Assembly: GCA_033764315.1 (NCBI GenBank)
Contig: JANRJA010000092.1
Span: forward strand, 13,304 to 77,303
Source: Oculatellaceae cyanobacterium bins.114
Lineage (GTDB): Bacteria > Cyanobacteriota > Cyanobacteriia > Elainellales > Elainellaceae
Direction of reading: 5' to 3'
Length of the DNA: 64,000 nt
Below the pieces are notes generated by a model. The model was not told where the DNA came from. It saw only the letters and a program-made list of their open reading frames with translations, and made no database searches. The translations under genes and the position numbers were made by a program. Below are positions 33,023-50,007 of the stretch, piece after piece. Within the stretch, counting starts at the first letter, position 1. Each line of letters opens with the position of its first letter.

Positions 33023-33091
33023 GGTACTGTAGATTTTGATATGGGCAGTACTGGACTCGAACCAGTGACATCCTGCTTGTAAGGCAGGCGC
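32999..33091 (-). repeat. att direct repeat (duplicated 3' part of tRNA-Val plus 43 bp flank)
   Basis: 93 bp matching 49892-49984 with 3 mismatches. Confidence 0.95.
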
Positions 33092-33182
33092 ATCCCTATT
33101 CTAAAAGGCTCTGGAGTGCCTATAAAAGCGTATTCCATCCTGTAGGGGTCTATGCTCTGGACTAAACTCTGGACTGGTTACG

Positions 33183-34316: not shown

Positions 34317-34970
34317 ATGGCGAAAGAAGAATACAGGCAACTGATTAAAGCTAAAGGGCACTTACCCACTGGTATTTTGGGTCAAGACTTTCCCGTAGAC
34401 TTCATCGTCAAGTTTTTAGAGGACAATTTAGCCCTTGGCGAGTCTTTGCTCGATGTAGTAGGGGTTAGGTTTCAGGGAAAAAATACATTTTTAGTTCTAA
34501 CATCCAAAAGGCTTATCTGCGTTTCTATAAAACCACACACTATTCTTGGGAAAAACTTTGAACTACCGCTGACCTTAAATTACAACCAAATAGAGAAAAT
34601 TTTTATCGCACCAAAAAGCGGAGTTCTTGTAAAAGGAAAAAGCACTGAGTTTAGTATGTATTTTGTCCAACTCAAGGAAGTGCAAAACTTTTCAGAGCCA
34701 CTTGAAAAATTAGGGATTAAAGTTGAAACACTCACTGCCATTCCTTCAGACAAGCATGAGAAAAGAATAATGCTTCAGGGGACTGCTGTGGTCATAATCA
34801 TAGTAGTTCTATTTGGTAGTTGCATTTATAGATCAATCACCAGTCCTGAACCTGTCAACCCTGGCGCAAGCTCAGAGGAGATTGAAGCGTGTTTAAGGCG
34901 ATATATTCAGGGTAGTACCGTAGAACCTCATGAAATCGAAGAAGGACGTAGAAGGTGTGCCCCTCGTTAG
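34317..34970 (+). CDS. Hypothetical protein, bacterial PH-like domain plus one TM
   Basis: FLVLTSKRLI motif; TM AVVIIIVVLFGSC. Confidence 0.6.
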   Translation: MAKEEYRQLIKAKGHLPTGILGQDFPVDFIVKFLEDNLALGESLLDVVGVRFQGKNTFLVLTSKRLICVSIKPHTILGKNFELPLTLNYNQIEKIFIAPKSGVLVKGKSTEFSMYFVQLKEVQNFSEPLEKLGIKVETLTAIPSDKHEKRIMLQGTAVVIIIVVLFGSCIYRSITSPEPVNPGASSEEIEACLRRYIQGSTVEPHEIEEGRRRCAPR

Positions 34971-35055
34971 CTTTTAGGGTTGAAATTACAAAATTCTTTT
35001 ATCCCTAGATTATTAGTTTGCGTCAGTTTCCTTGCTAACCTCCAAAGCAGCAAAA

Positions 35056-35083
35056 AGGGTGTCTTTACTAGTAAAGACACCCT
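35056..35083. terminator. Hairpin terminator between convergent genes
   Basis: AGGGTGTCTTTAC-TA-GTAAAGACACCCT preceded by an A-run. Confidence 0.65.
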
Positions 35084-35113
35084 CTGATGATTAGAGTCAC
35101 TAGTTAGCCAGCT

Positions 35114-35473
35114 TTAGCAGTTCTCAATTAAAAACCAGTTCAGTACTGCGCTTTGCTGATCTTCGGAAACGAAGCTAATCAATCCCTTCAATGCTAAGAC
35201 TTCAGCGGCTTCAATATCCTGTTCTCCAAATGTGATTAAAGAGAACTTGTCGTAGCCAGATCCAGGATCAACCATAAAGCCCTCGCAAGACACTGTAAGC
35301 AACCCATTCAAAAGTTCATGCCCTTCTAGGGAGAGGTTAAAGCGATCGCAGATTCCCTGAGCTAGCTTATTGACATAAAGCTGCATCATTTTTCCACGTT
35401 CCTGTCTCAACTTCACAGTAAAGTGACTGGGGTGTTGACAACAGGCTTCAGATTTAGAATTATTTCGAGACAT
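35114..35473 (-). CDS. Hypothetical protein
   Basis: ORF in a co-oriented cluster. Confidence 0.55.
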   Translation of the reverse strand: MSRNNSKSEACCQHPSHFTVKLRQERGKMMQLYVNKLAQGICDRFNLSLEGHELLNGLLTVSCEGFMVDPGSGYDKFSLITFGEQDIEAAEVLALKGLISFVSEDQQSAVLNWFLIENC

Positions 35474-35490
35474 ACTTGGTAATCCTTGAT

Positions 35491-35811
35491 TTAAGCGGCA
35501 ATTACTTCTTGTAACTTAGCGGACTTTTTACGCGCCTCAACATATCGCCATGTACCGCTTGGGAAGTGAAGATTGAGGATGTTCAGGACAACGGCAAAGC
35601 CACCGTTACCAGGACAAAGCAGGTCAATCACCAGACCTTCACCAGTGATCCGGTTCTCAATAATCACCAGTAGTTCGCAGTACCCATAGGCGTATCGCTG
35701 GGTTTGATCAGCAATGAGATTGAAGCCGTTGATTTCAACTGTGCGATCGCCTTTGAAAATAGTCTTTTCAGCAGGTATCACGGGCTTTTTGAGAGCAATT
35801 TGAGTGGTCAT
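35491..35811 (-). CDS. Hypothetical protein
   Basis: GGAG RBS; ORF track. Confidence 0.6.
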   Translation of the reverse strand: MTTQIALKKPVIPAEKTIFKGDRTVEINGFNLIADQTQRYAYGYCELLVIIENRITGEGLVIDLLCPGNGGFAVVLNILNLHFPSGTWRYVEARKKSAKLQEVIAA

Positions 35812-35875
35812 CGGGTAAACTCCAGATAGGTCATTAATTTGGTCTGGGGAGGTGTTACAGCACCTCCCTTTTTCA

Positions 35876-36097
35876 TCACTCAGTCAAGTAGGGACGGTCT
35901 GAAACGAATTGTTTATATTCCTTCCAGAATTGATCCCAATCTTTGGGAATCTCGGACTGATCACCGTTGTCGGTAATCTTTACCCCTGTCATTTCTTCGA
36001 GTTGAGCAATTACCGCGTCAACCTCTGCATCTAGGGAGTCGAAGTCAGTAGGGAAATCCTCAACCTCCACAAACCCGTCAGGAATCAAGTAATCCAT
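35876..36097 (-). CDS. Small acidic hypothetical protein
   Basis: Strong AGGAGG RBS; very acidic sequence. Confidence 0.6.
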   Translation of the reverse strand: MDYLIPDGFVEVEDFPTDFDSLDAEVDAVIAQLEEMTGVKITDNGDQSEIPKDWDQFWKEYKQFVSDRPYLTE

Positions 36098-36218
36098 CGG
36101 TCAAACCTCCTTTGCTAAACGGTTTCATTGAATTTGGGCTTTGTCCTCAGTCGCAGATCCCAACCTGCCGGGGAACCCTTTTAGTGGGTAGGTGCAACCC
36201 TCGTGTCTTAATAGTAAT

Positions 36219-36330
36219 CCCGGTATACCGGGAATGACAAGAGTTTTTATATTAGTATTTCCCGGTATACCGGGAAACTTGCATAAACAGAACTCATTAA
36301 TTGAATTACTGTAATCCCTGGTATACCGGG
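36219..36330. promoter_or_regulatory. Three palindromic operator-like sites CCCGGTATACCGGG
   Basis: Copies at 36219-36232, 36261-36274 and 36317-36330 (one mismatch) between divergent genes. Confidence 0.75.
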
Positions 36331-36363
36331 ATATAATTAGACTGATTACAACGTGACATATAC

Positions 36364-36600
36364 TTGAGGAGAAAACCTATTGTGCTGACAGTGGCGAATC
36401 AAGATCCCGTACTCTCTGACGAGTTCAAAAAAGCTCAAATCCCCAAGGATCAGCGGTTTGAGCTATCAAAAAAGCCGTATTGTTTGAAGCTTCCGATCAA
36501 CATTGATCAATGGTTGCGATCGCATCCCAACGGTGTAGAGATTGCCAGGAATGCCCTCATTCAGGCAGTTAACGAGCATCAACAATCTGGTGAAGAGTGA
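36364..36600 (+). CDS. Small putative DNA-binding protein
   Basis: KPYCLKLPINIDQWLRS...IARNALIQAV is RHH-like; start uncertain. Confidence 0.55.
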   Translation: MRRKPIVLTVANQDPVLSDEFKKAQIPKDQRFELSKKPYCLKLPINIDQWLRSHPNGVEIARNALIQAVNEHQQSGEE

Positions 36601-36609
36601 GGCAACGCC

Positions 36610-36858
36610 ATGAGTAAACCGTCCCTGACCCAATTGGTTGATGTTTTCTGTAGGACTGAGGAGGATGATTTTGACTTAGCCTACAGTTCAATTCGAGAAC
36701 TTCTTTCACGGCACTCAGCAGCAGTAATTCTAAAAACTGTCGCATCTGCACTGTTAGATGAATTACAAGAGGAAACAACCCTTGCAAACAAAGATGATTT
36801 GTCTATGTACGGTAATGCTTTAGATGATCTGGTAGAACGACTGTATAAAGGTTCGTAA
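36610..36858 (+). CDS. Hypothetical protein
   Basis: GAGG RBS; followed by a hairpin at about 36886-36917. Confidence 0.55.
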   Translation: MSKPSLTQLVDVFCRTEEDDFDLAYSSIRELLSRHSAAVILKTVASALLDELQEETTLANKDDLSMYGNALDDLVERLYKGS

Positions 36859-36940
36859 CTCTTGACCCTCTGTTACCCATAAAACAACCCTCAGAGTAAT
36901 CACCACACTGAGGGTTTTCGCTTGTTATAGGGCAGTTCCA

Positions 36941-38188
36941 TCACTTGCAACTTGAACCATCAAACCCTTTGAAGTCGAGGTAATTTATGGGATTCTCAGG
37001 CGTTCCATTGCGGTGAATTTCCAGGTGGAGGTGTGAGCCTGTTGAGAGTCCAGTAGTTCCCATTAGGGCGATAACTTGACCCTGAGAAACGCGATCGCCC
37101 TGCTTCACCATTAGTTGCTGACTGTGGGCGTAAAGGCTTTCCAGTCCATCACCGTGGTCAATCACAACCTTATACCCAAAACCATCACCAGCATCACCAG
37201 CCGTCACCACAGTGCCAGATGCGATCGCCCTGATTGGGGTTCCTGTTGCTCCTGATAGGTCAATCCCTAAATGAGGTCTTACCACCTTAAGAACCGGATG
37301 CAAGCGATCAGGGTCAAAGCAGGATGAAACAGTAGCCTCGTTGGGTGAGAGTGGTAGAGCAAGCGTGGTAGTCGTTGCACCTCTGGCAGAGAGAACAGAG
37401 GCGATCGCCTTCATCCGTCTGCTCTGGTCGTGCTCAATCGTCACACCTACAGCAGCAAGACCAGGGGCATCGCCTTCAAAACTTGCGATTCTGGCACATA
37501 GGATTAAGTCATCCCCAACCTTGCCTGAGTCTTGGCATCGCTTAAGGTACTCAGCAAAGCTTGCTCCGGCACGTGGGCTTTGATTGGTTAAGTCTGCCAA
37601 GTTGAGAATAGTGGCTGTATCGGGTGTGATGCCTAACTGCTCCAACTCCAACAACTCAGGCTCAATTTGGCTTTTGAGTCGTCGGATCTGCACCTTATCG
37701 GCTTCCTGTGGTGAGGATGCACCATGAATGTAACTGAACGTCCCCAGGTTTAGATAACCGCTGTCATAGTGCCCATTAAATGCGGATGTAGTCCCTCCAT
37801 CAGCGGTTCTCGTTCCTTCTGAAACACCAATGGCGATCGCTGCTAGGGAATCAGAGCCACCATCAAAGTGAGACTCCCATGAAACATTCTCAGTCGTGGC
37901 ACCATCGCAAATCTCAAAGGGCATAGCCGCTCTACCCCAAGCAGGCAGGAGAGAGCAGCTATTATTCACGATCCAATCGAGTGAGGCTACTGTGAAACAA
38001 GTAGTCGCACAGACAAAGCAAAGGATCGCATCATTCCACAAAGCCTGCCAGGTCACAGCATCTTCTACAGCGCCGACCTGCTTGCTGATCCGCTTGTTGG
38101 ACTTGGCGATCGCTCCCTGTTGCCGTTCGATTCGTTCGAGTCGGTCTGAGATGGTGTTGAGTTGTTTGGCAATGTCGGTGGATTCCAT
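36941..38188 (-). CDS. Peptidoglycan hydrolase: lysozyme-like domain + M23 metallopeptidase
   Basis: M23 motifs HLGID, YAH and STGSHLHLEI; central AIGVSEGTRT..G resembles the Glu motif of lambda-type lysozymes (inferred). Confidence 0.85.
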   Translation of the reverse strand: MESTDIAKQLNTISDRLERIERQQGAIAKSNKRISKQVGAVEDAVTWQALWNDAILCFVCATTCFTVASLDWIVNNSCSLLPAWGRAAMPFEICDGATTENVSWESHFDGGSDSLAAIAIGVSEGTRTADGGTTSAFNGHYDSGYLNLGTFSYIHGASSPQEADKVQIRRLKSQIEPELLELEQLGITPDTATILNLADLTNQSPRAGASFAEYLKRCQDSGKVGDDLILCARIASFEGDAPGLAAVGVTIEHDQSRRMKAIASVLSARGATTTTLALPLSPNEATVSSCFDPDRLHPVLKVVRPHLGIDLSGATGTPIRAIASGTVVTAGDAGDGFGYKVVIDHGDGLESLYAHSQQLMVKQGDRVSQGQVIALMGTTGLSTGSHLHLEIHRNGTPENPINYLDFKGFDGSSCK

Positions 38189-38280
38189 CGTTCTACCTGA
38201 TCGGGTAATGCTACGCGAATGACAACGAAAACAGTCAGCCCTAAGAGGGTCAATCTCAAGCTGTTAATCAATGCCGTCAT
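38065..38280 (-). CDS. Small single-TM protein, or frameshifted N-terminus of the M23 gene
   Basis: ATGA-coupled to the upstream ORF; TM LTLLGLTVFVVI; overlaps the M23 ORF out of frame. Confidence 0.45.
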   Translation of the reverse strand: MTALINSLRLTLLGLTVFVVIRVALPDQVERWNPPTLPNNSTPSQTDSNESNGNRERSPSPTSGSASRSAL

Positions 38281-38495
38281 AGGTCATTCCCTCCCTGATC
38301 AGAAGGCGTCGGATCTGCATCCTGACGTGTTTCTGGCGATTCCCATGAAGCAGGCTGACGCGTGATAATCTCTTGCACAGTTCCAACAACGTTCAGCACA
38401 ATCCCGTTAATGTTGATAGAGCCATCAGCTAGACACCGCAATAGAACAGGGATACCGACGATTACAATCGCGATCGCACCGATTAGATTTTTCAT
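38277..38495 (-). CDS. Small single-TM protein
   Basis: N-terminal hydrophobic helix; GGAG RBS. Confidence 0.6.
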   Translation of the reverse strand: MKNLIGAIAIVIVGIPVLLRCLADGSININGIVLNVVGTVQEIITRQPASWESPETRQDADPTPSDQGGNDL

Positions 38496-38553
38496 TTTTT
38501 GAGTTCTCCAGAGTCAGTTTCAGTAACCAAAAATTGCCGCAAAAAGTCGTCGC

Positions 38554-39999
38554 CTAAGCCGTCTCAGGGTAGACAAAAGGGTTTTCAAACGATTCTTCAA
38601 ACCCAGTCGTATCAGTTGCCGTAGCCATTCCCTCTGTCTCCCCTCGTCTCCCATCGCCCAATTTCACCGAATTTTCAGGGTTAGGAACCCCTGATCCAAG
38701 GGCTTCAATTTTTGACTTGAACAACAGGTATTTTTGGTTAGTAGCCTTCATCTCTTTTCGGCTTTGACCTGCCACTGTTACCCAAAACTCAGTAATGGCG
38801 ATCGCCTGTTTCCCCTCGCTGACACGCTCCAACATCCGCTTGAGAATCTTGGCTTCAAGTTCAGACGTCCAGAGTTGGTTAAACCACTCCTGATCGGGAT
38901 CTGTAACCGCTTCATCTGCCTCATCAACAAACTCAACTTGTTCAATATGGAGGGCTGGCAGTGCCTTGACTGAAAGAGCCTTATCAGTGAACACAACGCA
39001 CGGTCTAAGGTCTTTAACGACCTTGGGCACGTTGCCCATCTGCCTGATCACCTCATCCACTTGGTTTGTGTCGAGGTTGTCATAGTTGCGTTTGCTCTGG
39101 GATGCGCGATACAAGAGCAGCACTTCGAGCAGTTTGAGCAAGGCTCTAGGGATGCCAGAGCTGCCAACACTCAAGTCATGTAAGCCAAGTAGGAAGGTGA
39201 CATTACCTTGCTTGATACCCCTGTTGCAGATGTTTCTAAGTGACTTAATGATTTCCTCTAAAGCCTTCTCCTCAAGAGAGTCTTTGAAGCTGATCCACTC
39301 ATCAACCAAAAGCAGGATGGGCTTAAACTGCGGTTTGGATCTGCCCTGTTTGATGGCATCGGCTGTTTTTCTGGCACGGGTCGCAACCTCACCAGCAACC
39401 ATATGGATCACAGCCTCGATGTCGGTCATCTCAATGAAAACGACCTTTCCCACTGGCAGGTTAAACCAGGTGTTTGGATCAGCGCCCTCGTGAGATGAAC
39501 CGTAATCCGGGTCAGCGATGTAAATTTCCGCATCCGGATGCTGTTGCAGAAACCGTTGCACTCTCCACAAAAGCAGATGAGTCTTACCATCCTTGCTCTC
39601 ACCGCAGACAATAGCCGATCGCTTCTCAAAGCCCTTAAACCAGTCAGTTTCTAGACCTTGTTTGGCGATGAACTGATCCGCTAACTTTTCACCCATTGGC
39701 ATCTGTTTCAGGGCACTAATCACCAGGCGTTGCTTGCCTTGGGCGATCGCTTGACTGGCAGGTAAAGCAACCTCATTCAGATCACCGATCGCCTCTTGCA
39801 AATATTGGGATGAACCCCTGAAGACATCGACATATTCAAGTTTGCGACGGCTTCTAAGAGCCTCACCCACACCCCACATACTGAATCCGCCTAACCAGTG
39901 ATAGGCACTGCTAGCGGTCACACACATCGTGAAGCTGGCAGCGAATAGACTACCAATCACCAGCTTTTCAGCGTTGCTGACACCGTTAGTAGTCTGCAT
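38554..39999 (-). CDS. Membrane-anchored P-loop ATPase, FtsK/HerA-like
   Basis: N-terminal hydrophobic segments; Walker A GESKDGKT; Walker B ILLLVDE. Confidence 0.75.
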   Translation of the reverse strand: MQTTNGVSNAEKLVIGSLFAASFTMCVTASSAYHWLGGFSMWGVGEALRSRRKLEYVDVFRGSSQYLQEAIGDLNEVALPASQAIAQGKQRLVISALKQMPMGEKLADQFIAKQGLETDWFKGFEKRSAIVCGESKDGKTHLLLWRVQRFLQQHPDAEIYIADPDYGSSHEGADPNTWFNLPVGKVVFIEMTDIEAVIHMVAGEVATRARKTADAIKQGRSKPQFKPILLLVDEWISFKDSLEEKALEEIIKSLRNICNRGIKQGNVTFLLGLHDLSVGSSGIPRALLKLLEVLLLYRASQSKRNYDNLDTNQVDEVIRQMGNVPKVVKDLRPCVVFTDKALSVKALPALHIEQVEFVDEADEAVTDPDQEWFNQLWTSELEAKILKRMLERVSEGKQAIAITEFWVTVAGQSRKEMKATNQKYLLFKSKIEALGSGVPNPENSVKLGDGRRGETEGMATATDTTGFEESFENPFVYPETA

Positions 40000-40495
40000 T
40001 GCCTAAGACCTCCTCAAAAGCTTGGATGAGTGCTGATGGGTTAACCGTGGTTTGGTCGGATGCAACACCACCATTGACAACCCAGTGGTAGGCAACGAGA
40101 CATGCTGACAGTTCAGCAGTCCGGTTGAGCAATTCACCATACTGGACGGCTTCACCCGTCACAGTGCCGTATTGCTGTCTTAGCGAGGCGATGTCACCAG
40201 CAACATCGCGGCAAAGTTTGTCAGTCCATGCGATCGCGTCACCCGATTCTTGAGCCTTGGTGAATAGCTCGACGGCACGAGCATTAATCACCGATCGGAT
40301 CGATTGCGAGTAGATATCTCTTGCCAGTTGTAGATAGGGTGAATTGGCTGAAACAGCGTCACCACTTGAAGGCGACGTTCCAGGGTTGCTTATGGCGATT
40401 GCTGGCTCTTGCCTTGAGGGAGGTGCCGATAGACCCCTGACAATCAGGACAGTCACCAGGGCAACGACAGGAACAGAAATGAACTTGCTAATCAT
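39986..40495 (-). CDS. Hypothetical membrane-anchored/secreted protein
   Basis: N-terminal hydrophobic helix; overlaps both neighbours. Confidence 0.65.
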   Translation of the reverse strand: MISKFISVPVVALVTVLIVRGLSAPPSRQEPAIAISNPGTSPSSGDAVSANSPYLQLARDIYSQSIRSVINARAVELFTKAQESGDAIAWTDKLCRDVAGDIASLRQQYGTVTGEAVQYGELLNRTAELSACLVAYHWVVNGGVASDQTTVNPSALIQAFEEVLGNADY

Positions 40496-40853
40496 GGTGT
40501 TTCACCTCTTCCATGAGTCGTGACCACATTTCAAGCTCTTGCTCACTGAGGAGAGGTTGAGACAGCTTGCTACGGGCAATACGACGCAATGCAGCGCGAT
40601 CGCTTTGGTCAGGTGCAATCACCACACTGAGAGCATAGAAAACCAATGTGGTAATGAGGATGGATGGCAGCAATGCCCACACATCACCTTGGAATCTTCC
40701 CCATTCCTCCAATGGCACCTCGTAATCAGCCGAAATTTTGTGGTAAAGGTCATTCAACCCGTACAGCATCCCCAGGATCACGCCTCCACTGGTGAGCGAG
40801 AATCCAAGGATGCTACCAGGCGTTAAGAGTCGATTGAATCGTTGATGGGTCAT
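40488..40853 (-). CDS. Hypothetical two-TM protein
   Basis: ATG 40853 overlaps the upstream TGA; two hydrophobic segments. Confidence 0.65.
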   Translation of the reverse strand: MTHQRFNRLLTPGSILGFSLTSGGVILGMLYGLNDLYHKISADYEVPLEEWGRFQGDVWALLPSILITTLVFYALSVVIAPDQSDRAALRRIARSKLSQPLLSEQELEMWSRLMEEVKHHD

Positions 40854-41059
40854 GGCTTCATGCCTCCTTTGGTGGGCACAATTAGCCCACAAGCTTTAAG
40901 AGTCCTGATGGCAGTGGCGATCGCTGTCTTCGGTCTGTCAGTGAACTGCTGGATGCGTTCAGGTGTGGCTACTGCATCACAGGCATTAATCGCGGCAATC
41001 GCACCCCAAACGTCTGTCTCTGCGTCCGTGAACGGTCGGATTTGATAGGCAGTTGGCAT
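40850..41059 (-). CDS. Small winged-helix-like protein
   Basis: TPERIQQFTDRPKTAIATAIRTLKACGLI resembles a wHTH; GAGGAGG RBS. Confidence 0.55.
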   Translation of the reverse strand: MPTAYQIRPFTDAETDVWGAIAAINACDAVATPERIQQFTDRPKTAIATAIRTLKACGLIVPTKGGMKP

Positions 41060-41072
41060 TGTTCAACCCTCC

Positions 41073-41258
41073 TCAAACCAGAGCTAAGAAGTGAACGCAG
41101 AGATTCACCAGGTGTTGTTGTCCCTGGTTTGGTGCAATGCCAAAAATCCGCCATCGAGCGAGAGCAATGGCAGCGATCGCGGCTGCATCGATGGGGATTC
41201 CTACAGAAGTAAAGCTTTGAAAGATTTCTCGTCGAAGTTGTTTGAAATCGGCATTCAT
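41073..41258 (-). CDS. Hypothetical protein
   Basis: GGAG RBS; lies in the operon. Confidence 0.5.
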   Translation of the reverse strand: MNADFKQLRREIFQSFTSVGIPIDAAAIAAIALARWRIFGIAPNQGQQHLVNLCVHFLALV

Positions 41259-41337
41259 AATGGTCGTATCTCCATTTTTGAAAGGGTGGGGATGGGCTAC
41301 TGCTGAACTTGTCGAGGGTCACAGCAGTAGCTTTCGA

Positions 41338-41616
41338 TTACGCTGCATCGGATTGAAACGAGCGAATCCACTGCAAGATGCGATCGCGGTTGTTGTCGGT
41401 AATCTGCTCATCACCTTTGATAAGGTCTGCACAGCTTGCGATTCGATAGAGGCAGTCATCAGCGTCGTATTTGCCGCTGTTGAGGCGTTGAATCTGGGTT
41501 GTGATGTAGTCGCGATCGGAGCCTGAAAGACTTGTCAGGAGGTTTGGCGATACTTGAGCAGGTTTTAAGGTTGGATCGTGCTCCATTAGCCATTTACGAA
41601 AGCTTTTGAGAATCAT
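41338..41616 (-). CDS. Hypothetical protein
   Basis: AGGAG RBS; lies in the operon. Confidence 0.6.
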   Translation of the reverse strand: MILKSFRKWLMEHDPTLKPAQVSPNLLTSLSGSDRDYITTQIQRLNSGKYDADDCLYRIASCADLIKGDEQITDNNRDRILQWIRSFQSDAA

Positions 41617-41660
41617 GTGTGGTGTCTCCTGTGGTGAATCCGTGGTGTTTTCGCTGCCGA

Positions 41661-41915
41661 TTAAAAACCCTGAATGGGATCTGAGAACTTGAAATCGGGT
41701 TCAACTTGTGACGATGACGATGGACTGTAATAGTTGGCAGGGTTGGGATCGGCGTATCGGGTCGGGTCTAATTCCCAGGTTTCAAGTAAATGGCGTCCAT
41801 ACCTGCTCACCATTAGGGCGATCGCTGCACTAGGTGATGTGGTTCGTGTTTTTGCTTGAATCTGGTCAACCACATTTCTGATGTCAGGATCTAGAACAAT
41901 GCGACTCTGACTCAT
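41661..41915 (-). CDS. Putative ParR-like adaptor (84 aa)
   Basis: ATGA-coupled to the ParM-like gene; N-terminal strand-helix-helix pattern and acidic/Pro tail. Function inferred from position. Confidence 0.55.
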   Translation of the reverse strand: MSQSRIVLDPDIRNVVDQIQAKTRTTSPSAAIALMVSRYGRHLLETWELDPTRYADPNPANYYSPSSSSQVEPDFKFSDPIQGF

Positions 41916-42916
41916 AGACCCAACATCCCCACAATCGAGATAGTCTGAGGGTTTGGGGCAATCTTGAAACGTCCTTTGGTTGCTTCTTGCAATGGAGCGG
42001 CGATCGGGGCAGAGCCACCAATGATTAGCACTTCTCCTAAGTTGGCAAGCCACTGCCCCCAACGGGTTTTGATTTGACCTCTGATGTCTTCTAACCACTG
42101 CTCACGTGCTGACTCAAAGGCGGCATGGAAGCAATAGCCAGTAGTGCCCAACATGAAATCTCCTGCCTCAATGCCATCCATAATCAGCGACAGGTCAGGA
42201 CTGGCAGATAAGTCACGAGTGATCCGGGCGGCAATGCGTCGGGCTAAGTCAAACGTGCCAGGAAGGATCAGATCGGCTTCCCGCATGAGGGAGCCTGAGA
42301 CGCTGTAAAGCCTGAGAATGCTTGTCCCCCCTCCCAGATCTAGAACTCCGTTGGTATTGCGTTTGCTGAGGAACAGACCTTGCTGAGTGGCGTAACGGTA
42401 TGCTGCAACCGTTTCATCAACTGGCTCAACCTTGCGAACAGTGGCAATGATGGTTTGACCATTGCGGGTGAATTCGTGTGTACCTTCGATCGCTTTCAAC
42501 GATTCAACATCGGCATCATTGCGAGAGTTGGGAAGGGCGATCGCCAGTCGTTCGACTCTCACGGCATCAGCCCCCGGCATTGGTTCCAATGCTGTCAGCA
42601 CCAATAGACGAGCCAGTTTAACCTTGTCCTTCTCAAACACTGGACTGCCTGACAGGTCTTTAGCAACTTGACCCACGACAAAAGTAGAGCCTTCAAACTC
42701 AATCACCATAGAGTTTTCATCAGGGCTGACATCTTCCCATGTGGGATCGATCGGCTTGATAAAACTGGGGATGGTATGAACGTTGCTGAGTGGGTCAACC
42801 CATTGGATCGTGCGATTGCCACCGTCGAAGGCAACGAGGGGACGGATCAGATTCTTTGTATCCGTTAAAGGTTCGTTACTTGTCCGTCTTTCGGACTTAG
42901 CTAGAGCGGTACTCAT
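41912..42916 (-). CDS. parM: ParM/StbA-family actin-like ATPase
   Basis: AFDGGNRTIQ (phosphate 1), VLDLGGGT (phosphate 2), IIGGSA (adenosine); AGGAG RBS before ATG 42916. Confidence 0.85.
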   Translation of the reverse strand: MSTALAKSERRTSNEPLTDTKNLIRPLVAFDGGNRTIQWVDPLSNVHTIPSFIKPIDPTWEDVSPDENSMVIEFEGSTFVVGQVAKDLSGSPVFEKDKVKLARLLVLTALEPMPGADAVRVERLAIALPNSRNDADVESLKAIEGTHEFTRNGQTIIATVRKVEPVDETVAAYRYATQQGLFLSKRNTNGVLDLGGGTSILRLYSVSGSLMREADLILPGTFDLARRIAARITRDLSASPDLSLIMDGIEAGDFMLGTTGYCFHAAFESAREQWLEDIRGQIKTRWGQWLANLGEVLIIGGSAPIAAPLQEATKGRFKIAPNPQTISIVGMLGL

Positions 42917-43115
42917 TGCGGGTGAATTCTCCTGAAACGTATTAGCTGTAAAGATTTGAAGCATTTCTGGAAGACAGGTAAGCACTTTTTTACTGTTCGT
43001 TGCCTATCCGTTTCGTGTCCCTTGCTTGTACAAATAGTATCACACCAAAGTACAAGAGTGTGCTACTTTATTACTGTAATCTCGTAACCCGCTAAGATCG
43101 AGGAGTTGAAAGAAC

Positions 43116-43361
43116 GTGAATCTTTTAGTGCCTACGCAGAAGCCCCGAATTGTCTCCTATTGCGACGAAGAAACCCATGAAATCCTCAAAGCAATTGCTG
43201 TAGAGGAGGATCGGAGCCTATCGAAATTGGTTGATATGCTATTGGCAGAGTTAGCGCAGCTAAAACCAGTTTTGGATGCTTATCGAAGTGATGCGGCATG
43301 GAAGGGACTTCCCTATGCCCAGAAAATTAAAATTCTGATCGAAGAAACAACCAAGAAATAA
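43116..43361 (+). CDS. Ribbon-helix-helix regulator
   Basis: IVSYCDEETHEILKAIAVEEDRSLSKLVDMLL. Confidence 0.75.
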   Translation: MNLLVPTQKPRIVSYCDEETHEILKAIAVEEDRSLSKLVDMLLAELAQLKPVLDAYRSDAAWKGLPYAQKIKILIEETTKK

Positions 43362-43705
43362 GAGATTTGAAGGTATCGACACGTGACTATGCCAACCACC
43401 CTTAAGGATTGGCAATTGTTTGCTGTAATTTTGTGGAAAACTTGCCAACACAGAGGAGCTTAGTCTTACCCCTAGTTCGTAATGTTAAACATGACAGTTT
43501 CTAACAACTGAAAACTACTTTGTAATGCTTTTAATGACAGATCTATTGCAAACGATAGAGTTAAATATTGATAGCTATTAGACCTTTAACCCTATCGTTA
43601 CGCGGGTTTTCGAGATATACATAAGTTTTTTGTATGCTCTTTTTTTGGTACAAGCAACTTATAAAAAAATTTGTGGGGTATACAATATTAATAGGAGGAA
43701 GAGCA

Positions 43706-43855
43706 ATGAAAAAACACGACATCTTAACAGCAAGAGTTGAAAAGAATCTCGTTAAACCGTTTGAAGCGATCGCCAAGGAACAAGGGCTAACAAAGTCATC
43801 CTTACTCAATCAGTTGGTTAAAGAGTTAGTTGAATCTCGACTTGCTAAGTCCTGA
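43706..43855 (+). CDS. CopG-like RHH protein (49 aa)
   Basis: AGGAGG RBS; LTARVEKNLVKPFEAIAKEQGLTKSSLLNQLV. Confidence 0.7.
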   Translation: MKKHDILTARVEKNLVKPFEAIAKEQGLTKSSLLNQLVKELVESRLAKS

Positions 43856-43917
43856 TAAAAATCAAAAACCCCTAGTGTTTCAGCACTAGAGGTTCAAGGT
43901 TTTTATCAAACGTTTAT

Positions 43918-44376
43918 TTGACCACCCGTGTAGCAGAGAAAGTTTGGTCGCTAAGACTGCTCTACGGTATTCGCCCAAAGGAAAGGCACACCTTTATCCA
44001 TATGAATTGTAATGTTAAACCGCACAAACCCGCAAGTGTATCAAGTCAGTCTCATAGCAAGACTGTTAAGTCCAATTTTTCCTATCCTGTCTCTTTCAAT
44101 TCTACAAAAAACCGTGTTAAAAGTCAGCATCGTCAGGTTAGTCTTTTCGACCTGATTGACACTGGTGAGGCTTCACCTAAATCAGAAGAGACTTGGGGAG
44201 ATTTAGAGGAATCCCTTGAAACACTAGCCGCTATGCCGTTTCTTCAGCAGTTTTTTGGTGTCGTTCAAGCCGCAAAATTTCACAGGATTGAGTTCAAGGT
44301 TTTTCGGTCGCTTTTCTATGAGTGGCAGGAGTGTCGGAATAATTTTCAGCTAGAAAAAGGGAGTGCAGACCTATGA
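43918..44376 (+). CDS. Hypothetical protein upstream of rep
   Basis: Stop overlaps the rep start (ATGA); true start may be ATG 44002. Confidence 0.5.
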   Translation: MTTRVAEKVWSLRLLYGIRPKERHTFIHMNCNVKPHKPASVSSQSHSKTVKSNFSYPVSFNSTKNRVKSQHRQVSLFDLIDTGEASPKSEETWGDLEESLETLAAMPFLQQFFGVVQAAKFHRIEFKVFRSLFYEWQECRNNFQLEKGSADL

Positions 44377-45158
44377 ACGCTCCTTTTCTAGAAGAGTTTC
44401 AAAAAAGCGCAATTCCTGATCATTTGAGCCTTATCAACGTGCGGTGGATTAAAGGCGATGAAGCTATTCAAATTTTGGCAGAAGAGGCAATTTCCAAAGC
44501 TCAAAAGGTTGAAAGTTTTGTAACCAAATCTGCTTCCAAAATCCTCAACAAATATGCTTTTGCAGCAGCAGGTGGGTGGGTTGCCTATGGTTGCGATGCT
44601 GACGGTAAGCTTTCAGGCACAGTGCCATTATTCAAGCCTCTAGAGCCTCGTAAAGAGCTGGAAAATGGGAGGCTGAAAACAATCAAATATGAAACCCCCC
44701 AGGGGTATCAGGCTACCCCTATCCTGCCGTGGGTTGACGAGTTGACAGCGGCAGCAATTTACAAATGGTACGGCGTGACCCCATTAGAGGGTGAAACGTT
44801 CTGGCAGGTAGTTTGGCGTTGTGGACTGCCGATCGCCATCACTGAGGGACTGAAGAAGGCTCTATCACTAATCGCTCACGGTTTACCTGCGATCGCACTG
44901 CGAGGTGTTGCCTGTTGGCATCTGAAAGGATCTGACAAGCTACATGAATCGATTTCTCACTTTGTCACGCCAGTGCGATCGATTTATATCGTCTTCGATC
45001 AGGACGAAAAATTGAGGACTCAGCGCGATGTGAGAAACCAGATCCTTAAGTTGGGTTCATCCCTTGAACAGAAGGGATGCAAAGTATTTGCACCAACTTG
45101 GGATAGAAAACTTGGCAAGGGAATTGATGACGTTTTATGGGGGTTGAGCAATGAATAA
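44373..45158 (+). CDS. TOPRIM primase-like domain (DUF3854 type), N-terminal part of CyRepA1-like replicase
   Basis: IKYETP, ITEGLKKALSL, IVFDQD, KGIDD. Confidence 0.85.
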   Translation: MNAPFLEEFQKSAIPDHLSLINVRWIKGDEAIQILAEEAISKAQKVESFVTKSASKILNKYAFAAAGGWVAYGCDADGKLSGTVPLFKPLEPRKELENGRLKTIKYETPQGYQATPILPWVDELTAAAIYKWYGVTPLEGETFWQVVWRCGLPIAITEGLKKALSLIAHGLPAIALRGVACWHLKGSDKLHESISHFVTPVRSIYIVFDQDEKLRTQRDVRNQILKLGSSLEQKGCKVFAPTWDRKLGKGIDDVLWGLSNE

Positions 45159-47529
45159 ATCCCATAAGTGGCTCGACGATCTAATCAAGAATGCTCCAAC
45201 CCTAAAGGATTACAAAAGACACGGACGCATTCAGGGAGCTTTAGAGGCGATCGCACGGTTAAATCAGCTTTCCTACCCAGTTGAGCGTGAAACGACAGGT
45301 GAGTATTTGCCACCATTGCCAGAGTTGACCATCGGTTCAATTCACGTTCTTACTGCTGGCATGAACGCGGGTAAGACAACCCGGATCGGCGTTGATTTGG
45401 TGCAATGGGCAAAGGTACGAGAATGGAACGTTTTAGTTATTTCTCCTCTCAACTCACTAGGACAACAAACCGCTAAAGACTGGGAACTATCCCACATCCA
45501 CGATTTTGGCTTATCTAAAGCCGAGCAGGAGGGACTATGGGCAAGTGTTAGCGCATCTCATGGCGTGGTGATGTGTCCTGATTCGTTGCATCGTATTCCC
45601 CAATGGTTTTGGTCACGTCCAACCCTACTAATTCTCGACGAAGCTAACCAAGTGATTGACCACATCACACAGGGTAATACACTGGGCACTCGATGGGCAG
45701 AAATCCTAGAACTGTTCAGTGCGATTGCCTGCCAATCAGCCCAAACTGGGGCAATCGTTTTGAGTGAAGCGGGTATTCCCGATCGAGCAGTGAAGTTTGT
45801 TCAGACCGTTGCAGACTGCGATCGGGTGCGAGTGTTCAAGCACATTAAGCAGGGTAAGCCTTGGAACTGCTCTATTTTCTCAGGTCAAGCCAGTGGGTTT
45901 AGAGCACGGCTGATTCAGTCAATTCAGCAGGGCGATCGCATCTTGATTGTGACCAGCTCTCAGCGCGAAGCGCGACGGCTGCAAAAGGTGATCAGCCAGA
46001 AATTACCCTCAATCAAGGCAGTGAGAGTTGATTCAGAAACCAATCAGCAGGGTGCTTTTAGTAGCTTCTTTGAAAACCCAGATCAGTGGTTAAAAGACAA
46101 TCAGCCAGACGTTTTAATCCTCTCTCCCAGTGCTAAGTCAGGCGTGAGCATTGAGGGCAATGTTCCCGTTGAGAGTGCTTACTTTTCATCGGTTTGGGGT
46201 TACTTTCCAACTCTGGCAACCGACACTCATATGCAACTTTTAGGACGATACCGCCCATCAGTACCACGCTACATCTTTGTACCTCCCTTCATCATGACCG
46301 ATGGGGACGAGTCACTATTTACCCCCAGAGCAGTGAAGCGACGACTAAACACCAATCTGAAGGGCTTTGCAGGTGTTTACGACTTGCACGAATTGATTGA
46401 AGCTGACGATACCCGCGCCGAATCACTGGTGAGAATAGAGACAGCAGTTCTTGATTATCTGGCAGCGTCAAAGACTGTCAGTGGTGCTCAGAAGTCAATT
46501 GCTCATGACGCATTAGCTAAGGAGCTGGAGACAGCAGGGCACACGGTCAAGTGTGTTCAATCTCAAAAGGATGCAACAACAGTTGAGTTGTGGAAGGATA
46601 TCCAGGAGGAGATCTGGCGTGAGGACGCAGCAGCGATCGCCAGTGCGGTAGTCGAGGATCGGCACACTCCAGAGTGGGCACACAGAACCCTAGAATCTCT
46701 CGAAGTCAGTTTAGAAACTCGCATTCTTGCCCAGAAGGTAATCTGGCGTGAGCAATTTCCTGGCATATTGTTTGATGACGCTGAGGAATGCTATCAGACG
46801 CTTTGCAAAGACTACGGAGCTATGCGACGTGGTGTGACGTTGCAGGCTAAAGCAGAGAATCTAGAGGCAGCGAAGGAAGGCGATCGTGCCAGCGTTGAGG
46901 CAATTTTGAAGTCCCGGATCAGAGCAATTCACCACTTGCCTAAAAACTACTTCAAGGCATTGTTAATTGCCAAGACAGGTGTTTTGGAGCTACTGAATGG
47001 TGAATGCTATTCCAATACCCACCCAAAAGCCCTACAGATTAGAAAAGCGGCACTGTACTGGGCTAACGAGATTAGCTACTGGTTGCGTTTACAAATCAAG
47101 CCAGACCAAACTCCAGTCGAAATCTGTAACAAGTTAATCAGGAAGATTGGATTAAATGGTGTTGCAGACAGCAGACCAGGGCAGCGAGGAACGAGTCGCG
47201 ATCGTGTCTACGTAATTGAAGGGATGGAGAATCCTGTCAGGCAGCGGTTATTAGAAGCCCTTCGTCGTAAGACTTCTAGCTCCGTGTCCACCGTTTGTAA
47301 TAAAGATAATTCCTCTATTCAAATCATGGACACCAGTATTCAAGGCGCTTCTACTCTCCCTCCAAAAACAGATTTTTCTCCCCAATCTTTAGTGAAATGG
47401 GGTTCCAGAATTTGTGATTGGGTCATTTTGGAAATAGAAGGTGCGATCGCCAAAGTCAGACAGGTCAATACCCCTCTGTCTAGCGTTGTTTGGGATGCTC
47501 CCATTGATGAGTTGAGGTTAATTGCATGA
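45151..47529 (+). CDS. Helicase-like part of CyRepA1-type plasmid replication protein
   Basis: AGMNAGKT, CPDSL, LILDEANQV, SPSAKSGVSI, QLLGRYR. Confidence 0.85.
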   Translation: MNKSHKWLDDLIKNAPTLKDYKRHGRIQGALEAIARLNQLSYPVERETTGEYLPPLPELTIGSIHVLTAGMNAGKTTRIGVDLVQWAKVREWNVLVISPLNSLGQQTAKDWELSHIHDFGLSKAEQEGLWASVSASHGVVMCPDSLHRIPQWFWSRPTLLILDEANQVIDHITQGNTLGTRWAEILELFSAIACQSAQTGAIVLSEAGIPDRAVKFVQTVADCDRVRVFKHIKQGKPWNCSIFSGQASGFRARLIQSIQQGDRILIVTSSQREARRLQKVISQKLPSIKAVRVDSETNQQGAFSSFFENPDQWLKDNQPDVLILSPSAKSGVSIEGNVPVESAYFSSVWGYFPTLATDTHMQLLGRYRPSVPRYIFVPPFIMTDGDESLFTPRAVKRRLNTNLKGFAGVYDLHELIEADDTRAESLVRIETAVLDYLAASKTVSGAQKSIAHDALAKELETAGHTVKCVQSQKDATTVELWKDIQEEIWREDAAAIASAVVEDRHTPEWAHRTLESLEVSLETRILAQKVIWREQFPGILFDDAEECYQTLCKDYGAMRRGVTLQAKAENLEAAKEGDRASVEAILKSRIRAIHHLPKNYFKALLIAKTGVLELLNGECYSNTHPKALQIRKAALYWANEISYWLRLQIKPDQTPVEICNKLIRKIGLNGVADSRPGQRGTSRDRVYVIEGMENPVRQRLLEALRRKTSSSVSTVCNKDNSSIQIMDTSIQGASTLPPKTDFSPQSLVKWGSRICDWVILEIEGAIAKVRQVNTPLSSVVWDAPIDELRLIA

Positions 47530-47699
47530 GCCAGCAGTCAGGTATTACCACTCGCATCAATGCTGCACTACAGCAAATGACAGAAGGCGATCGCCAGCGA
47601 ATGCTAGATTTTGCTACTTTCATCCTCAATAGTCGTGAAGGTAAACACCGCAAGCGTCAACAAAGTTTCAACCGTAAACCAGAAATCATAGAGGATTAA
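47526..47699 (+). CDS. Small hypothetical protein (57 aa, below ORF-track cutoff)
   Basis: ATGA-coupled to rep; MSQQSGITTRINAALQQMTEGDRQRMLDFATFIL...; stop lies 2 bp before the next ATG. Confidence 0.6.
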   Translation: MSQQSGITTRINAALQQMTEGDRQRMLDFATFILNSREGKHRKRQQSFNRKPEIIED

Positions 47700-47701
47700 T
47701 C

Positions 47702-48241
47702 ATGCCTGAACAGTTACAGCAAATCAAACAAATCAATGCCGAAATTGAAAGCTTAAGGAGTGAGATCGGCGAGAATTTAGCGGCAGCAAAGAACGCCGAA
47801 GAGGAGCTTGCAAGCATTCAAACCAGGATGCATGAGCATAGATCAGCAGCGTCACTTGCCGATGGTCGTTTAGCCAATCTTCAAGAAGAATTGTATCGAC
47901 TCCAGGCAGAGCAGGAGTTAGGCGAGAAGTGCCTTAAATTGCGTGAGATGGCTGATAGTGCCAATGTTTTGTCTGGTCAGCTTTATACCGTCCTAAATGG
48001 GTTCATGCAACTTGCTGACGAGCTTCAAGGGACGATTACACTTGACCATCAGTTTTTGATTGAAAGGGTTCCCGTGATTCAGCATCGAATCGGCTCTAAC
48101 AGCTTCAGGCTTGGCACTCGCCAGGACGCCATGAAAACTCGTTCAAATTCTCTTGACAAGACTTGGGACTGGGATCGGATTTTGCCGGACGGGGCAATTG
48201 AGCAGGTATCAGCAAGGGTTGAGCCTAGCCTTTGGAGCTAG
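47702..48241 (+). CDS. Coiled-coil hypothetical protein
   Basis: Heptad-rich N-terminal half; GAGG RBS. Confidence 0.6.
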   Translation: MPEQLQQIKQINAEIESLRSEIGENLAAAKNAEEELASIQTRMHEHRSAASLADGRLANLQEELYRLQAEQELGEKCLKLREMADSANVLSGQLYTVLNGFMQLADELQGTITLDHQFLIERVPVIQHRIGSNSFRLGTRQDAMKTRSNSLDKTWDWDRILPDGAIEQVSARVEPSLWS

Positions 48242-48309
48242 ATTTTAGGTCTTCTGTTTGTCTACGCTTGTAAATACCCATCTAGCTAAAGAAAACGAAC
48301 TGGTAAGTT

Positions 48310-48819
48310 ATGCCGCGTGAGCGTTTCACAACTGAAGAGTGCCGTCGAGGTGGGCAGCACCCAGCATCAGAATTGCAACGAGCGATCGCCACTCAAACTA
48401 TTCGACGCACAAAACCTTGGGAGCAATCAACAGGTGCCAAGACCATTAAAGGTAAATTTCATAGCTCCCTTAATGCTTATAGCGGATGGCATAAGACTGT
48501 AGAGTCTAGCAGTCTTGATTATGAATCGGAGTGCCAGAAGCTGAGATCAGCAGTTGCAGAGCTACAGAAATTAGCACCAAAGCATTGTTTTAAGGGAGTT
48601 ATCCAGGGTTGTGAGGTTAGCCTAAAAGTTGTCATTCAAGCCAACCTAAAAGACGGTGTTGATGGTCGGGATCACTGGCTAACAGCAAAAGTTAAAGCTC
48701 AAATAAACCTTGCAGTTAGGGGTCATTCTGATAAATTTGAGCTTGCTAAGCCAATTTGCGAGGAAATGAAACGAAAAGCGCATGAGGCGATCGCTACAAT
48801 TTTGGAAAGATTTCAATAG
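48310..48819 (+). CDS. Hypothetical protein with STG.KT..GK..SS.NA motif
   Basis: KPWEQSTGAKTIKGKFHSSLNA. Confidence 0.6.
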   Translation: MPRERFTTEECRRGGQHPASELQRAIATQTIRRTKPWEQSTGAKTIKGKFHSSLNAYSGWHKTVESSSLDYESECQKLRSAVAELQKLAPKHCFKGVIQGCEVSLKVVIQANLKDGVDGRDHWLTAKVKAQINLAVRGHSDKFELAKPICEEMKRKAHEAIATILERFQ

Positions 48820-48839
48820 GAACCTGTCAGCCAAGCTCC

Positions 48840-49061
48840 TTAATTTTCGTTAAGCTCTTTTTGAATCTGTTCATACTTGCCGCAGTCTATTTGATTGCCA
48901 GCATCGCAGGAGGATTTATAGTACTCCATTAATCTAAATTGCGCTTCCCTGGCTTGAATCTCAATCGGACTAAGTGGCGGATTAGTAGCAGCGTTCCAAA
49001 TAGACCCGATCACAAAGAACGCCACCAATCCCGCAATGCTCCATTTAAGCCATTTACTCAT
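48840..49061 (-). CDS. Small single-TM protein
   Basis: TM WSIAGLVAFFVIGSIW; Cys pair in the soluble part. Confidence 0.6.
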   Translation of the reverse strand: MSKWLKWSIAGLVAFFVIGSIWNAATNPPLSPIEIQAREAQFRLMEYYKSSCDAGNQIDCGKYEQIQKELNEN

Positions 49062-49067
49062 AAAGGA

Positions 49068-49601
49068 TTACAACATCCCGTCTATTCCAAAGTTATTGCT
49101 ATTCAGATCTGTACTCTTGGTTTGTCCTTGTTGGACAGTAACAGGCGTCAGCCAGTATCTCTGTAGTTGATCGTCGCCAGAAGCCCAGTTAACACCAAAC
49201 AAAAGATAGTCTCCCGGACTAATTCCTTCTATTGAGTAGTATCCATTTACACTGCTTTGCACTGGCGTTCCACAACTTTGCTTGGCAAAATCTTCCATTT
49301 CGCTTACAGCAGATAAATGCCTCATTTCGTTCACACCTGGAACGTCTGAAATTTCAGAGGAGTTTCTATCTCGAATTTCTTTGAATTGCTGAAAAAGATT
49401 TGACGGACAAGCAAACACGCTCATTCCTCTAATAAGTTCAGAACCTACGTCCGATGCAGAATTTAGATAAACGTAACCATCTAATTTGGCTTGAAGCTGA
49501 GGGCTTTCAGTCGTGGGAGCTGAAGCAGTCGGTAGAGGCTGACTAGTTCCACTGCATCCTGTGATAGCCGCAATGCAAAAAACCAAAGCAATTTTCTTCA
49601 T
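49068..49601 (-). CDS. Putative lipoprotein
   Basis: Lipobox ITGC; NGYYSIEGISPGDY beta-sandwich-like motif. Confidence 0.7.
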   Translation of the reverse strand: MKKIALVFCIAAITGCSGTSQPLPTASAPTTESPQLQAKLDGYVYLNSASDVGSELIRGMSVFACPSNLFQQFKEIRDRNSSEISDVPGVNEMRHLSAVSEMEDFAKQSCGTPVQSSVNGYYSIEGISPGDYLLFGVNWASGDDQLQRYWLTPVTVQQGQTKSTDLNSNNFGIDGML

Positions 49602-49806
49602 AATTAGACCTATCTCTGTTTCTAATATTCCTAAACAGAGATAAAAATCAGCAGTAAAACTGAATCTTTATATTTAGTTTCAAAAGTGTTGTTACTGTTT
49701 GCCTGCTGCCAACTTGAATTTCAGTAGTAGTCACGTTAGGGTTGACCCTCGATATCTGGACTACATATGGACTGTTTTGATAGCCTGTTGTTGTAAACCA
49801 GGGGTC

Positions 49807-49891
49807 AACGACAGTAATTTGTCCTGACGACACTAATTTGACTTCAATGACACCAATTTGTCACCGATGACAAATAATGTGTCACTGTAGA
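49807..49891 (-). mobile_element. Relic Tn7-like/type V-K CAST transposon end (four TnsB-site-like repeats)
   Basis: Minus strand TCTACAGTGACACATTATTTGTCATCGGTGACAAATTGGTGTCATTG...; A(C/T)GACA...TGTC repeats every 19-20 bp. Confidence 0.75.
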
Positions 49892-49934
49892 GCTGCTTTA
49901 ACCGAACTAACGTTAGGTACTGTAGATTTTGAGA

Positions 49935-50007
<73 letters not shown>

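Follow-up and report, generated by a model that had tools for sequence, protein, structure and literature searches.

A probable orphan type V-K CAST left end behind a tRNA-Val(UAC) gene, tied to an integrated plasmid-like element in an Oculatellaceae cyanobacterium

Islands and integrative plasmids that integrate at tRNA genes and are flanked by a duplicated tRNA 3' part form a general class, of which those of the pSAM2 type are examples. [quoted passage not shown] The end of one of these, ShCAST, is described as having an 8-bp terminal sequence and, next to it, TnsB sites of 22 bp with an overlap of 1 bp (PMC9371665), and the TGT motif is reported to be conserved and in contact with TnsB (PMC13598128). 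Hsieh and Peters report that 152 of 282 cas12k genes have a nearby tnsBCQ operon (bioRxiv 10.1101/2021.02.06.429022). We analysed 64,000 nucleotides (nt) of the Oculatellaceae cyanobacterium bins.114 genome (contig JANRJA010000092.1, positions 13,304 to 77,303 of the forward strand); the whole of this 64-kb stretch is called the window, and coordinates refer to it. Behind its tRNA-Val(UAC) gene lies what is very probably the decayed left end of a V-K CAST, tied to an integrated plasmid-like element.

The end is recognised by its repeats. The original prediction described four A(C/T)GACA...TGTC repeats at 19-20 bp spacing, and a direct reading of 49807-49891 finds exactly these: on the plus strand ACGACA is found twice (49808, 49827) and ATGACA twice (49847, 49867), with spacings of 19, 20, and 20, and the second halves read TTGTC, TTGAC, TTGTC or TGTC. 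Read on the minus strand, the unit takes the form GTGACA-ATTA-n-TGTC-n, about 20 nt long and present four times, reaching to about 49805, and the minus-strand end, 49891..49881, reads TCTACAGTGAC. The layout, an 8-bp terminus and then TnsB sites, agrees with the published structure of the ShCAST end (PMC9371665).

Reference ends for comparison were assembled in two steps. A blastn query of 175 nt across the repeats and the spacer next to them, run against 72,556 plasmids, gave one relevant record, a 35-nt match in Crinalium epipsammum pCRI9333.02 that starts TGTACAGTGAC. The bases common to this match and the window were written as a degenerate (IUPAC) pattern with 23 specified bases and scanned on genome contigs, which yielded 115 stretches, of which 80 carry at most 8 kb of flank and 35 carry 300 nt; by record title nearly all are from cyanobacteria, the exceptions being one Candidatus Sericytochromatia bin and a few entries named 'uncultured bacterium', and the window's own genome is absent from them. 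One stretch, L094, comes from [Scytonema hofmanni] UTEX 2349 and lies 45 nt behind a tRNA-Leu(tag) gene; its flank and terminus match a donor primer in PMC9527255, and because of the strain and the primer match we identify it as the ShCAST left end. Many reference ends have reverse-strand open reading frames (ORFs) of 630-646 aa located 0.5-3.4 kb inside, and those of L020, L024, L043, and L030 score 859-981 bits against the NCBIfam Cas12k model NF038191, so that the matched ends are V-K CAST ends. Behind Cas12k, the layout of L030 is compact, with three ORFs that read towards the tRNA (166, 276, and 580 aa) and are taken as TniQ, TnsC, and TnsB, judged from size and order alone; the 580-aa ORF matches DDE-transposase models weakly, and the other two match no family.

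The terminus and the four repeats of the window fall into register with the 115 reference ends, and an alignment (A1) places the window end in register, from the first base, with ShCAST L094 and five cas12k-linked ends. Among the 45 terminal bases the window has 41 in common with L020, whose cas12k lies 0.5 kb inside, and 38 with L094; L035 has 73 of 86 bases in common with the window, and seven of the eight bases of the terminal sequence agree with V-K ends. A profile built from the first 45 nt of 114 ends matches 49889-49848 with an E-value of 5.6e-14 (nhmmer), the best match elsewhere in the window having E=2.3, and in a blastn comparison with the fetched loci 49889-49805 is 80-86% identical to its matches, L035 being the best (85.9% over 85 nt, E=1.5e-21). 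Homology to real ends ceases at about 49805. The likeness to the ShCAST left end that the original prediction proposed is borne out, the window end being in register with L094.

The position of the end relative to the tRNA gene agrees with that of natural V-K elements. The window holds one tRNA gene, tRNA-Val(tac), and the left end lies target-proximal, 61 nt downstream of a protospacer-adjacent motif (PAM) of the form GTN within it; the predicted figure of 61 bp between the end and the T-loop GTT is confirmed by direct reading (49952..49892). Ninety of the 115 reference ends lie no more than 50 nt behind a tRNA gene of the same direction, with gaps of 2-46 nt, and gaps of 39-46 nt are found behind tRNA-Thr(cgt), tRNA-Thr(tgt), and tRNA-Leu(tag). 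Guides were sought as 17-nt inverted matches between the 130 nt outside the end and the first 4 kb inside it in the 77 loci with enough interior, and 28 of these gave a guide-to-target match with at most one mismatch. The three bases before the target begin with GT in 23 of the 28, and in these 23 the spacer lies 121-473 nt inside the end, after a unit ending TTGAAA(G/A), mostly GGGTTGAAAG; such att (attachment site) guide units inside the left end were described by Hsieh and Peters (bioRxiv 10.1101/2021.02.06.429022). The distance from PAM to end is 57-64 nt in 21 of the 23 (60 nt in six and 61 nt in five), with outliers of 48 and 23 nt. The prediction relied on a rule for Cas12k CASTs, namely a GTN PAM, insertion about 60-66 bp from it, a proximal left end, and homing to tRNA genes; measured on natural elements, the rule takes the distances just given, and the window fits it in its 61 nt, its orientation, and its T-loop target, which opens with CAAGTCC like the targets of L020 and L076.

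The remainder of a CAST is missing from the window. Cas12k proteins of three loci and the L030 ORFs taken as TniQ, TnsC, and TnsB, used as tblastn queries, matched the 64 kb no better than chance (best E-value 0.34), a Pfam scan of 54 window ORFs found no family of cas12k, tnsB, tnsC, or tniQ, and an Rfam scan found no CRISPR array or trans-activating CRISPR RNA (tracrRNA) inside the left end. A second end was sought across the 64 kb by consensus, by terminus, and with the 114-end profile, and none was found; the predicted absence of both a second end and tns or cas12k genes in the window stands. Genes, guide unit, and right end of a complete autonomous V-K CAST are all wanting here.

Several short sequences were considered as guide or gene remnants and rejected. 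The presumed protospacer 17-mer occurs in the window in the two tRNA copies described below and in one chance match with three mismatches (35135-35151), which lacks the repeat part of a guide unit; no guide was found. GGGTTGA at 49739-49745 (plus strand) equals the first seven of the ten bases of GGGTTGAAAG, the sequence that precedes natural att guides, and lies on the correct strand at the place expected for a guide unit (about 126-150 nt inside the end); ccc follows it, and then a 17-mer with no target in the window. The same is true of the 17-mer after GGGTTGAAAT at 34977. A 16-nt exact match of 48787-48802 to the cas12k gene of four orthologous loci (E=2.2) is not collinear with the weak protein matches and is attributed to chance.

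Alignment, orientation, spacing, and gene absence all fit the core of the original prediction, that the left end of a type V-K CAST stands orphaned at the tRNA-homing distance. Its further claim, that the TC in place of the terminal TG should block TnsB cleavage, may be right, but at L056 (a Nostoc sp. CreGUA01 metagenome-assembled genome contig) a TC end, with the terminus TCTACAGT, belongs to an element with full-length cas12k (alignment of 635 aa) whose att guide matches tRNA-Val(gac) perfectly. With no partner end or enzymes nearby and a TCT terminus, the window end is probably inert today.

A segment of 16.8 kb (33092-49891), flanked by a 93-nt direct repeat, has the CAST end as its innermost feature. 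The two copies are identical at 90 of 93 positions, and the tRNA part starts at the end of the D-arm; the repeat copy next to the CAST ends exactly at the transposon terminus, and a weak Rfam tRNA match overlaps the distal copy (33042-33110, 33.3 bits). A direct repeat of the tRNA 3' part thus stands at both boundaries, as in tRNA islands. The occupied and the unoccupied att copies diverge at the first base of the element, which fixes the insertion point to the base without a relative for comparison. The CAST end lies inside the island and adjoins the island-side att copy. A tRNA rebuilt by integration is followed directly by incoming DNA, so in topology the spacer and the CAST end next to the complete tRNA are part of the island side. 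Beyond the distal copy come a hairpin and then a chromosomal gene for a VTT-domain protein. The hairpin (32949-32972, minus strand) has a sub-threshold match to Rfam CRISPR-DR28 (26.7 bits against a gathering threshold of 35, E=0.53) and is probably a terminator-like stem.

The replication protein of the island passes the curated cut-off of the CyRepA1 model, and its homologues are found by tblastn in 160 plasmid records, the best with 39-41% identity in 12-13-kb Synechococcus plasmids. Other island proteins include a weakly AAA-like one of 481 aa and small RHH-like ones. In the island no integrase or recombinase was found among 22 main ORFs with Pfam, PHROGs, and NCBIfam, nor does a recombinase appear at Pfam E-values up to 1 in 31 frames, 13 of them extra stop-to-stop frames. 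Megablast of 16.9 kb spanning the island against the PLSDB plasmids gave no nucleotide-level match, and with the att repeat region only generic tRNA-Val genes were matched among plasmids. Over a reach of 8 kb or less, 57 other CAST loci show no duplication of a tRNA 3' part; that of the window spans 16.9 kb, a distance beyond this reach. At L042, L049, and L077, DUF3854 or CyRepA1 homologues lie 1-8 kb away on the outer side of V-K ends, so CAST insertions in or next to such replicons recur. An intergenic region of the island (36213-36331) holds three copies of a 15-nt palindrome-containing unit of the CCCGGTATACCGGGA type, spaced 42 and 56 nt, which could be operator or origin-like repeats. 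The original prediction had spoken of two element classes competing for one tRNA site: the second element does exist, as the CyRepA1 island with its 93-nt att duplication, and the locus does not show competition. Coordinates of all these features are given in Table 1.

Table 1. Features of the CAST end, its target, and the adjoining island in the 64-kb window.
Feature	Position	Strand	Basis or remark
8-bp terminal sequence TCTACAGT	49884..49891	-	Reference ends have TGTACAGT in 102/115
TnsB-type site 1	49866..49885	-	Weight-matrix score 27.0; alignment A1
TnsB-type site 2	49845..49864	-	Weight-matrix score 22.2; consensus search; alignment A1
TnsB-type site 3, approximate bounds	49825..49844	-	Consensus with 2 mismatches; alignment A1
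TnsB-type site 4, approximate bounds	49805..49824	-	Consensus with 1 mismatch; blastn alignments stop at 49805-49810
Possible decayed fifth site, weak	49785..49804	-	About half of bases common with fifth site of real left ends (A1)
Spacer, tRNA 3' end to transposon terminus, 43 nt	49892..49934	-	Direct reading
tRNA-Val(UAC), complete, attachment-site gene	49935..50007	-	ARAGORN; Rfam RF00005, 74.8 bits
T-loop GTT, GTN PAM position	49953..49955	-	Direct reading
Presumed protospacer CAAGTCCAGTACTGCCC, 17 nt, T-loop to acceptor 3' strand	49936..49952	-	T-loop geometry as in L020/L076 guides
Proximal 93-nt repeat copy, occupied att site	49892..49984		43-nt spacer + tRNA 3' 50 nt
Distal 93-nt repeat copy, unoccupied att site	32999..33091		Truncated tRNA' + 43 nt, continuing into chromosomal flank
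Plasmid-like island without the end, ~16.7 kb	33092..49804		Between att copies
CyRepA1 replication protein, 792 aa	45151-47529		NF042913, 215.9 bits, cut-off 200
DUF3854 protein gene	44373-45158		Upstream of CyRepA1; Pfam
ParM-like protein gene	41912-42985		Family scans
M23 peptidase gene	36941-38188

We infer from this arrangement a guide-directed origin, a deletion, a route of integration, and the inactivity of the end. A Cas12k-guide complex would have recognised a tRNA-Val(UAC) sequence by its GTT PAM and by the 17 nt running from T-loop to acceptor end, with the left end then attached by TnsB at 61 nt downstream, which is 43 nt behind the tRNA. Recombination within the duplicated att sequence would have joined a plasmid-like element bearing a tRNA-Val att copy to the chromosomal tRNA-Val. 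Its route would have been homologous (Campbell-type) or by a site-specific recombinase that is not seen here, and the crossover would lie in the first 33 nt of the repeat because all three mismatches lie 3' of the anticodon arm. Homing of the CAST could have been onto the plasmid att copy before integration or onto the tRNA-proximal copy after it. One deletion may then have taken the guide unit, CRISPR array, tracrRNA, cas12k, cargo, tniQ-tnsC-tnsB, and right end, and left the 8-bp terminus and four TnsB-type sites, 85-105 nt in all, joined to plasmid DNA. A simple replicative cointegrate was considered and rejected in its plain form, because an empty att copy, and no second copy of the transposon, forms the distal junction.

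A more specific version of this history, which we regard as unlikely, is that a plasmid with a captured att site (the tRNA-Val 3' part and the DNA downstream of it) served as a landing pad for a CAST through its ordinary att guide rather than a spacer specific to the plasmid, and that the 93-nt homology then recombined plasmid and end into tRNA-Val. Were it true, V-K CASTs could spread horizontally, and plasmids fuse with chromosomes, by way of att mimicry on plasmids, and the locus would be a natural trace of the plasmid-chromosome joining expected from replicative V-K transposition. We know of no documented case of such joining by replicative V-K transposition in cyanobacteria.

A second copy of TCTACAGT occurs at 49919-49926 (minus strand), inside the 43-nt spacer, and again in the unoccupied distal copy (33026-33033). 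This copy follows the tRNA by 8 nt and a GTA at positions 19-21 of that tRNA by 60 nt, which is the geometry of the tRNA-Val(gac) CASTs, and carries TC instead of TG. Such an 8-mer is found within 70 nt outside the end at two of the 115 reference ends (L026 and L069), in both cases abutting the end. The spacer copy may be an older, nearly erased scar.

A number of points weigh against a decayed V-K CAST left end tied to an integrated element. The terminus is TCT and not TGT, TG being present in 102 of the 115 reference ends and TC in three, and the 8-mer is present a second time in the spacer. Below about 49800 nothing matches a fetched locus above chance, so the link to a full element is the 85-105 nt of the end itself, with no right end to show a 5-bp target duplication. 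None of the 90 tRNA-adjacent reference ends lies at tRNA-Val(tac), which leaves the site without a direct precedent in the sample, and a guide with the 17-nt tRNA-Val(UAC) spacer was found in none of the fetched loci. As a separate result, the fetched loci, searched for the native allele, gave no tRNA-Val(tac) gene, and a literature search, in which sources were available in part, brought up no report of a V-K tRNA-Val(UAC) site or of natural remnants of CAST-plasmid fusions. As to the island, no integrase is detectable, the uninterrupted identity past the last repeat mismatch is 33 nt, which is short for homologous recombination, and its GC content and density of HIP1 (GCGATCGC) equal those of the chromosome, so that a foreign origin is invisible in composition. 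For this genome, the view is that of the 64-kb window.

Four other explanations were weighed. The repeats lie within a CyRepA1 replicon island and could be its iterons or recombinase arm sites, with an incidental likeness to CAST ends, a reading to which the related 40-nt stretch far from a tRNA in Crinalium pCRI9333.02 (a plasmid with ParM and a DEAD helicase) lends some colour; that stretch, however, starts with the terminus TGTACAGT and is hence another CAST end fragment, and there is one relevant record among the 72,556 plasmids although 160 carry homologues of the replication protein. The register with cas12k-linked ends from the first base and the 61-nt PAM distance make iterons extremely improbable. 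We likewise see very little chance that the end is not orphan at all and bounds a very large or one-ended element reaching outside the window, such as a protelomerase-associated transposon. Only 64 kb are visible, and one-ended relatives of V-K CASTs do exist in cyanobacteria (bioRxiv 10.1101/2024.11.13.623437), but in all 11 elements with full-length cas12k that gene lies 0.5-3.4 kb from the end and here it does not, the empty att copy is joined to ordinary chromosomal genes 16.8 kb inside, and the scan of 54 ORFs with Pfam found neither a protelomerase nor TnsBCQ; the end, moreover, is not near a sequence terminus, and its tRNA-homing distance is typical of Cas12k guidance.

An origin from another tRNA-targeting Tn7-like family, with a TnsAB fusion or as a type I-B or I-D CAST, is very improbable too. 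All interiors that could be typed carry cas12k (11 full-length and five partial among 50), the first 45 nt of the window end are nearest to the ShCAST-like ends L020 and L094, the spacing from the GTN PAM matches the Cas12k rule measured on natural elements, and a distinct end type that is nested in L051, L088, and L105 is unlike the window end. On the other side, tRNA-targeting families of this kind exist (bioRxiv 10.1101/2021.02.06.429022; PMC9881144), and cas12k is missing from 34 of the 50 ends whose interior spans 5 kb or more, these 34 having been typed for cas12k alone. The last possibility concerns why the scar persists: four TnsB sites might be kept because they confer target immunity on the tRNA-Val site, or formerly did so on the plasmid. 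Tn7-family elements are known to have target immunity brought about by transposase bound to ends (PMC13598128), the four putative sites still score as TnsB sites, and no element occupies the second att copy at a distance of 16.8 kb; against these, orphan ends of every length are common and resemble neutral decay, and retention for function appears quite improbable.

How common such remnants are can be seen from the reference ends. Of the 50 with at least 5 kb of interior, 11 have a full-length cas12k, five a fragment, and 34 none, and 25 of the 34 ends without cas12k are tRNA-adjacent; many reference ends are cut at about 40 nt, and some are end-to-end stubs of 72-83 bp. The window scar is therefore clean but ordinary, orphan V-K ends being frequent in cyanobacteria. 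In L028 (7962-8033, 72 bp) and L018 (about 71 bp) the left end runs straight into an inverted terminus, L055 holds a 2.4-kb element with two inverted ends (4391-6768), and L045 has two ends in tandem (7999 and 8776); these are miniature derivatives of V-K CASTs. The Crinalium epipsammum plasmid pCRI9333.02 (53 kb; L001) carries an orphan V-K-type terminus with two TnsB sites at about 11999-12040, with no tRNA or tns genes nearby.

At L051, L088, L105, and L005 a different Tn7-like end type begins 35-40 nt inside the V-K left end, with repeats of the TTGTCACTGTTAACAGATTAAT type and a terminus like TGTACATT or TGTAGATT. The first three lie behind tRNA-Val(gac) and L005 has no adjacent tRNA; it looks as if, at a tRNA site common to both, one element had landed inside another's end. 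Elsewhere in the window, defence-like signalling genes of the chromosome occupy 5046-9376 and 21451-24534 and encode a protein with TIR and AAA_35 domains, one with AAA_35 and TPR, and one of 1027 aa with three TIR domains and a Cache-type sensor. An ORF at 4093-4851 (minus strand) has a weak match to the C-terminal part of an IS200-like Y1 transposase.

With this locus tRNA-Val(UAC), by way of a T-loop protospacer, joins the natural homing sites of this sample. One molecule holds the occupied and the unoccupied version of the att site 16.8 kb apart, and a V-K CAST end is physically linked to a CyRepA1 replicon integrated in the chromosome. How replicative, cointegrate-forming V-K elements handle plasmid donors in native hosts is an open question according to Hsieh and Peters (bioRxiv 10.1101/2021.02.06.429022), and loci such as this junction of a CAST end and a replicon are where it could be answered.

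Compared with known systems, the window end is closest to the ShCAST left end L094 and to L020, with which it shares an 8-bp terminus, overlapping TnsB sites of about 20-22 bp in the same register, a tRNA of the same direction at a gap of 41-45 nt, and a T-loop GTT followed by 17 nt that start with CAAGTCC. The ShCAST-like ends differ in having a TGT terminus, tRNA-Leu(UAG) as target, and a guide unit and cas12k, whereas the window has TCT, tRNA-Val(UAC), and neither. Like the degraded elements of Hsieh and Peters, it reflects V-K CAST decay in place at a tRNA att site; cas12k genes were the starting point of their survey, so that bare ends fell outside it, and the window end differs from degraded Cas12k elements in lying within a duplicated att site with a plasmid replicon.

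The protelomerase-associated transposons resemble the window as relatives of V-K CASTs with a single end (bioRxiv 10.1101/2024.11.13.623437), but they are described as telomeric, with tnsBCQ and usually a protelomerase; the window has none of these genes, and its end is internal and has tRNA-homing geometry. The island shares with CyRepA1 plasmids (among them small ones of Synechococcus elongatus, hits H3 and H4, and Synechocystis NC_020290.1) the replication protein, the DUF3854 gene upstream, and a ParM-like gene, and is unlike them in being integrated in the chromosome between two att copies. As in tRNA islands, a complete tRNA forms one boundary, and at the other its 3' part, starting with the anticodon arm, is repeated directly; the window island departs from these in having no detected integrase or excisionase and in a repeat that runs 43 nt beyond the tRNA into non-coding DNA.

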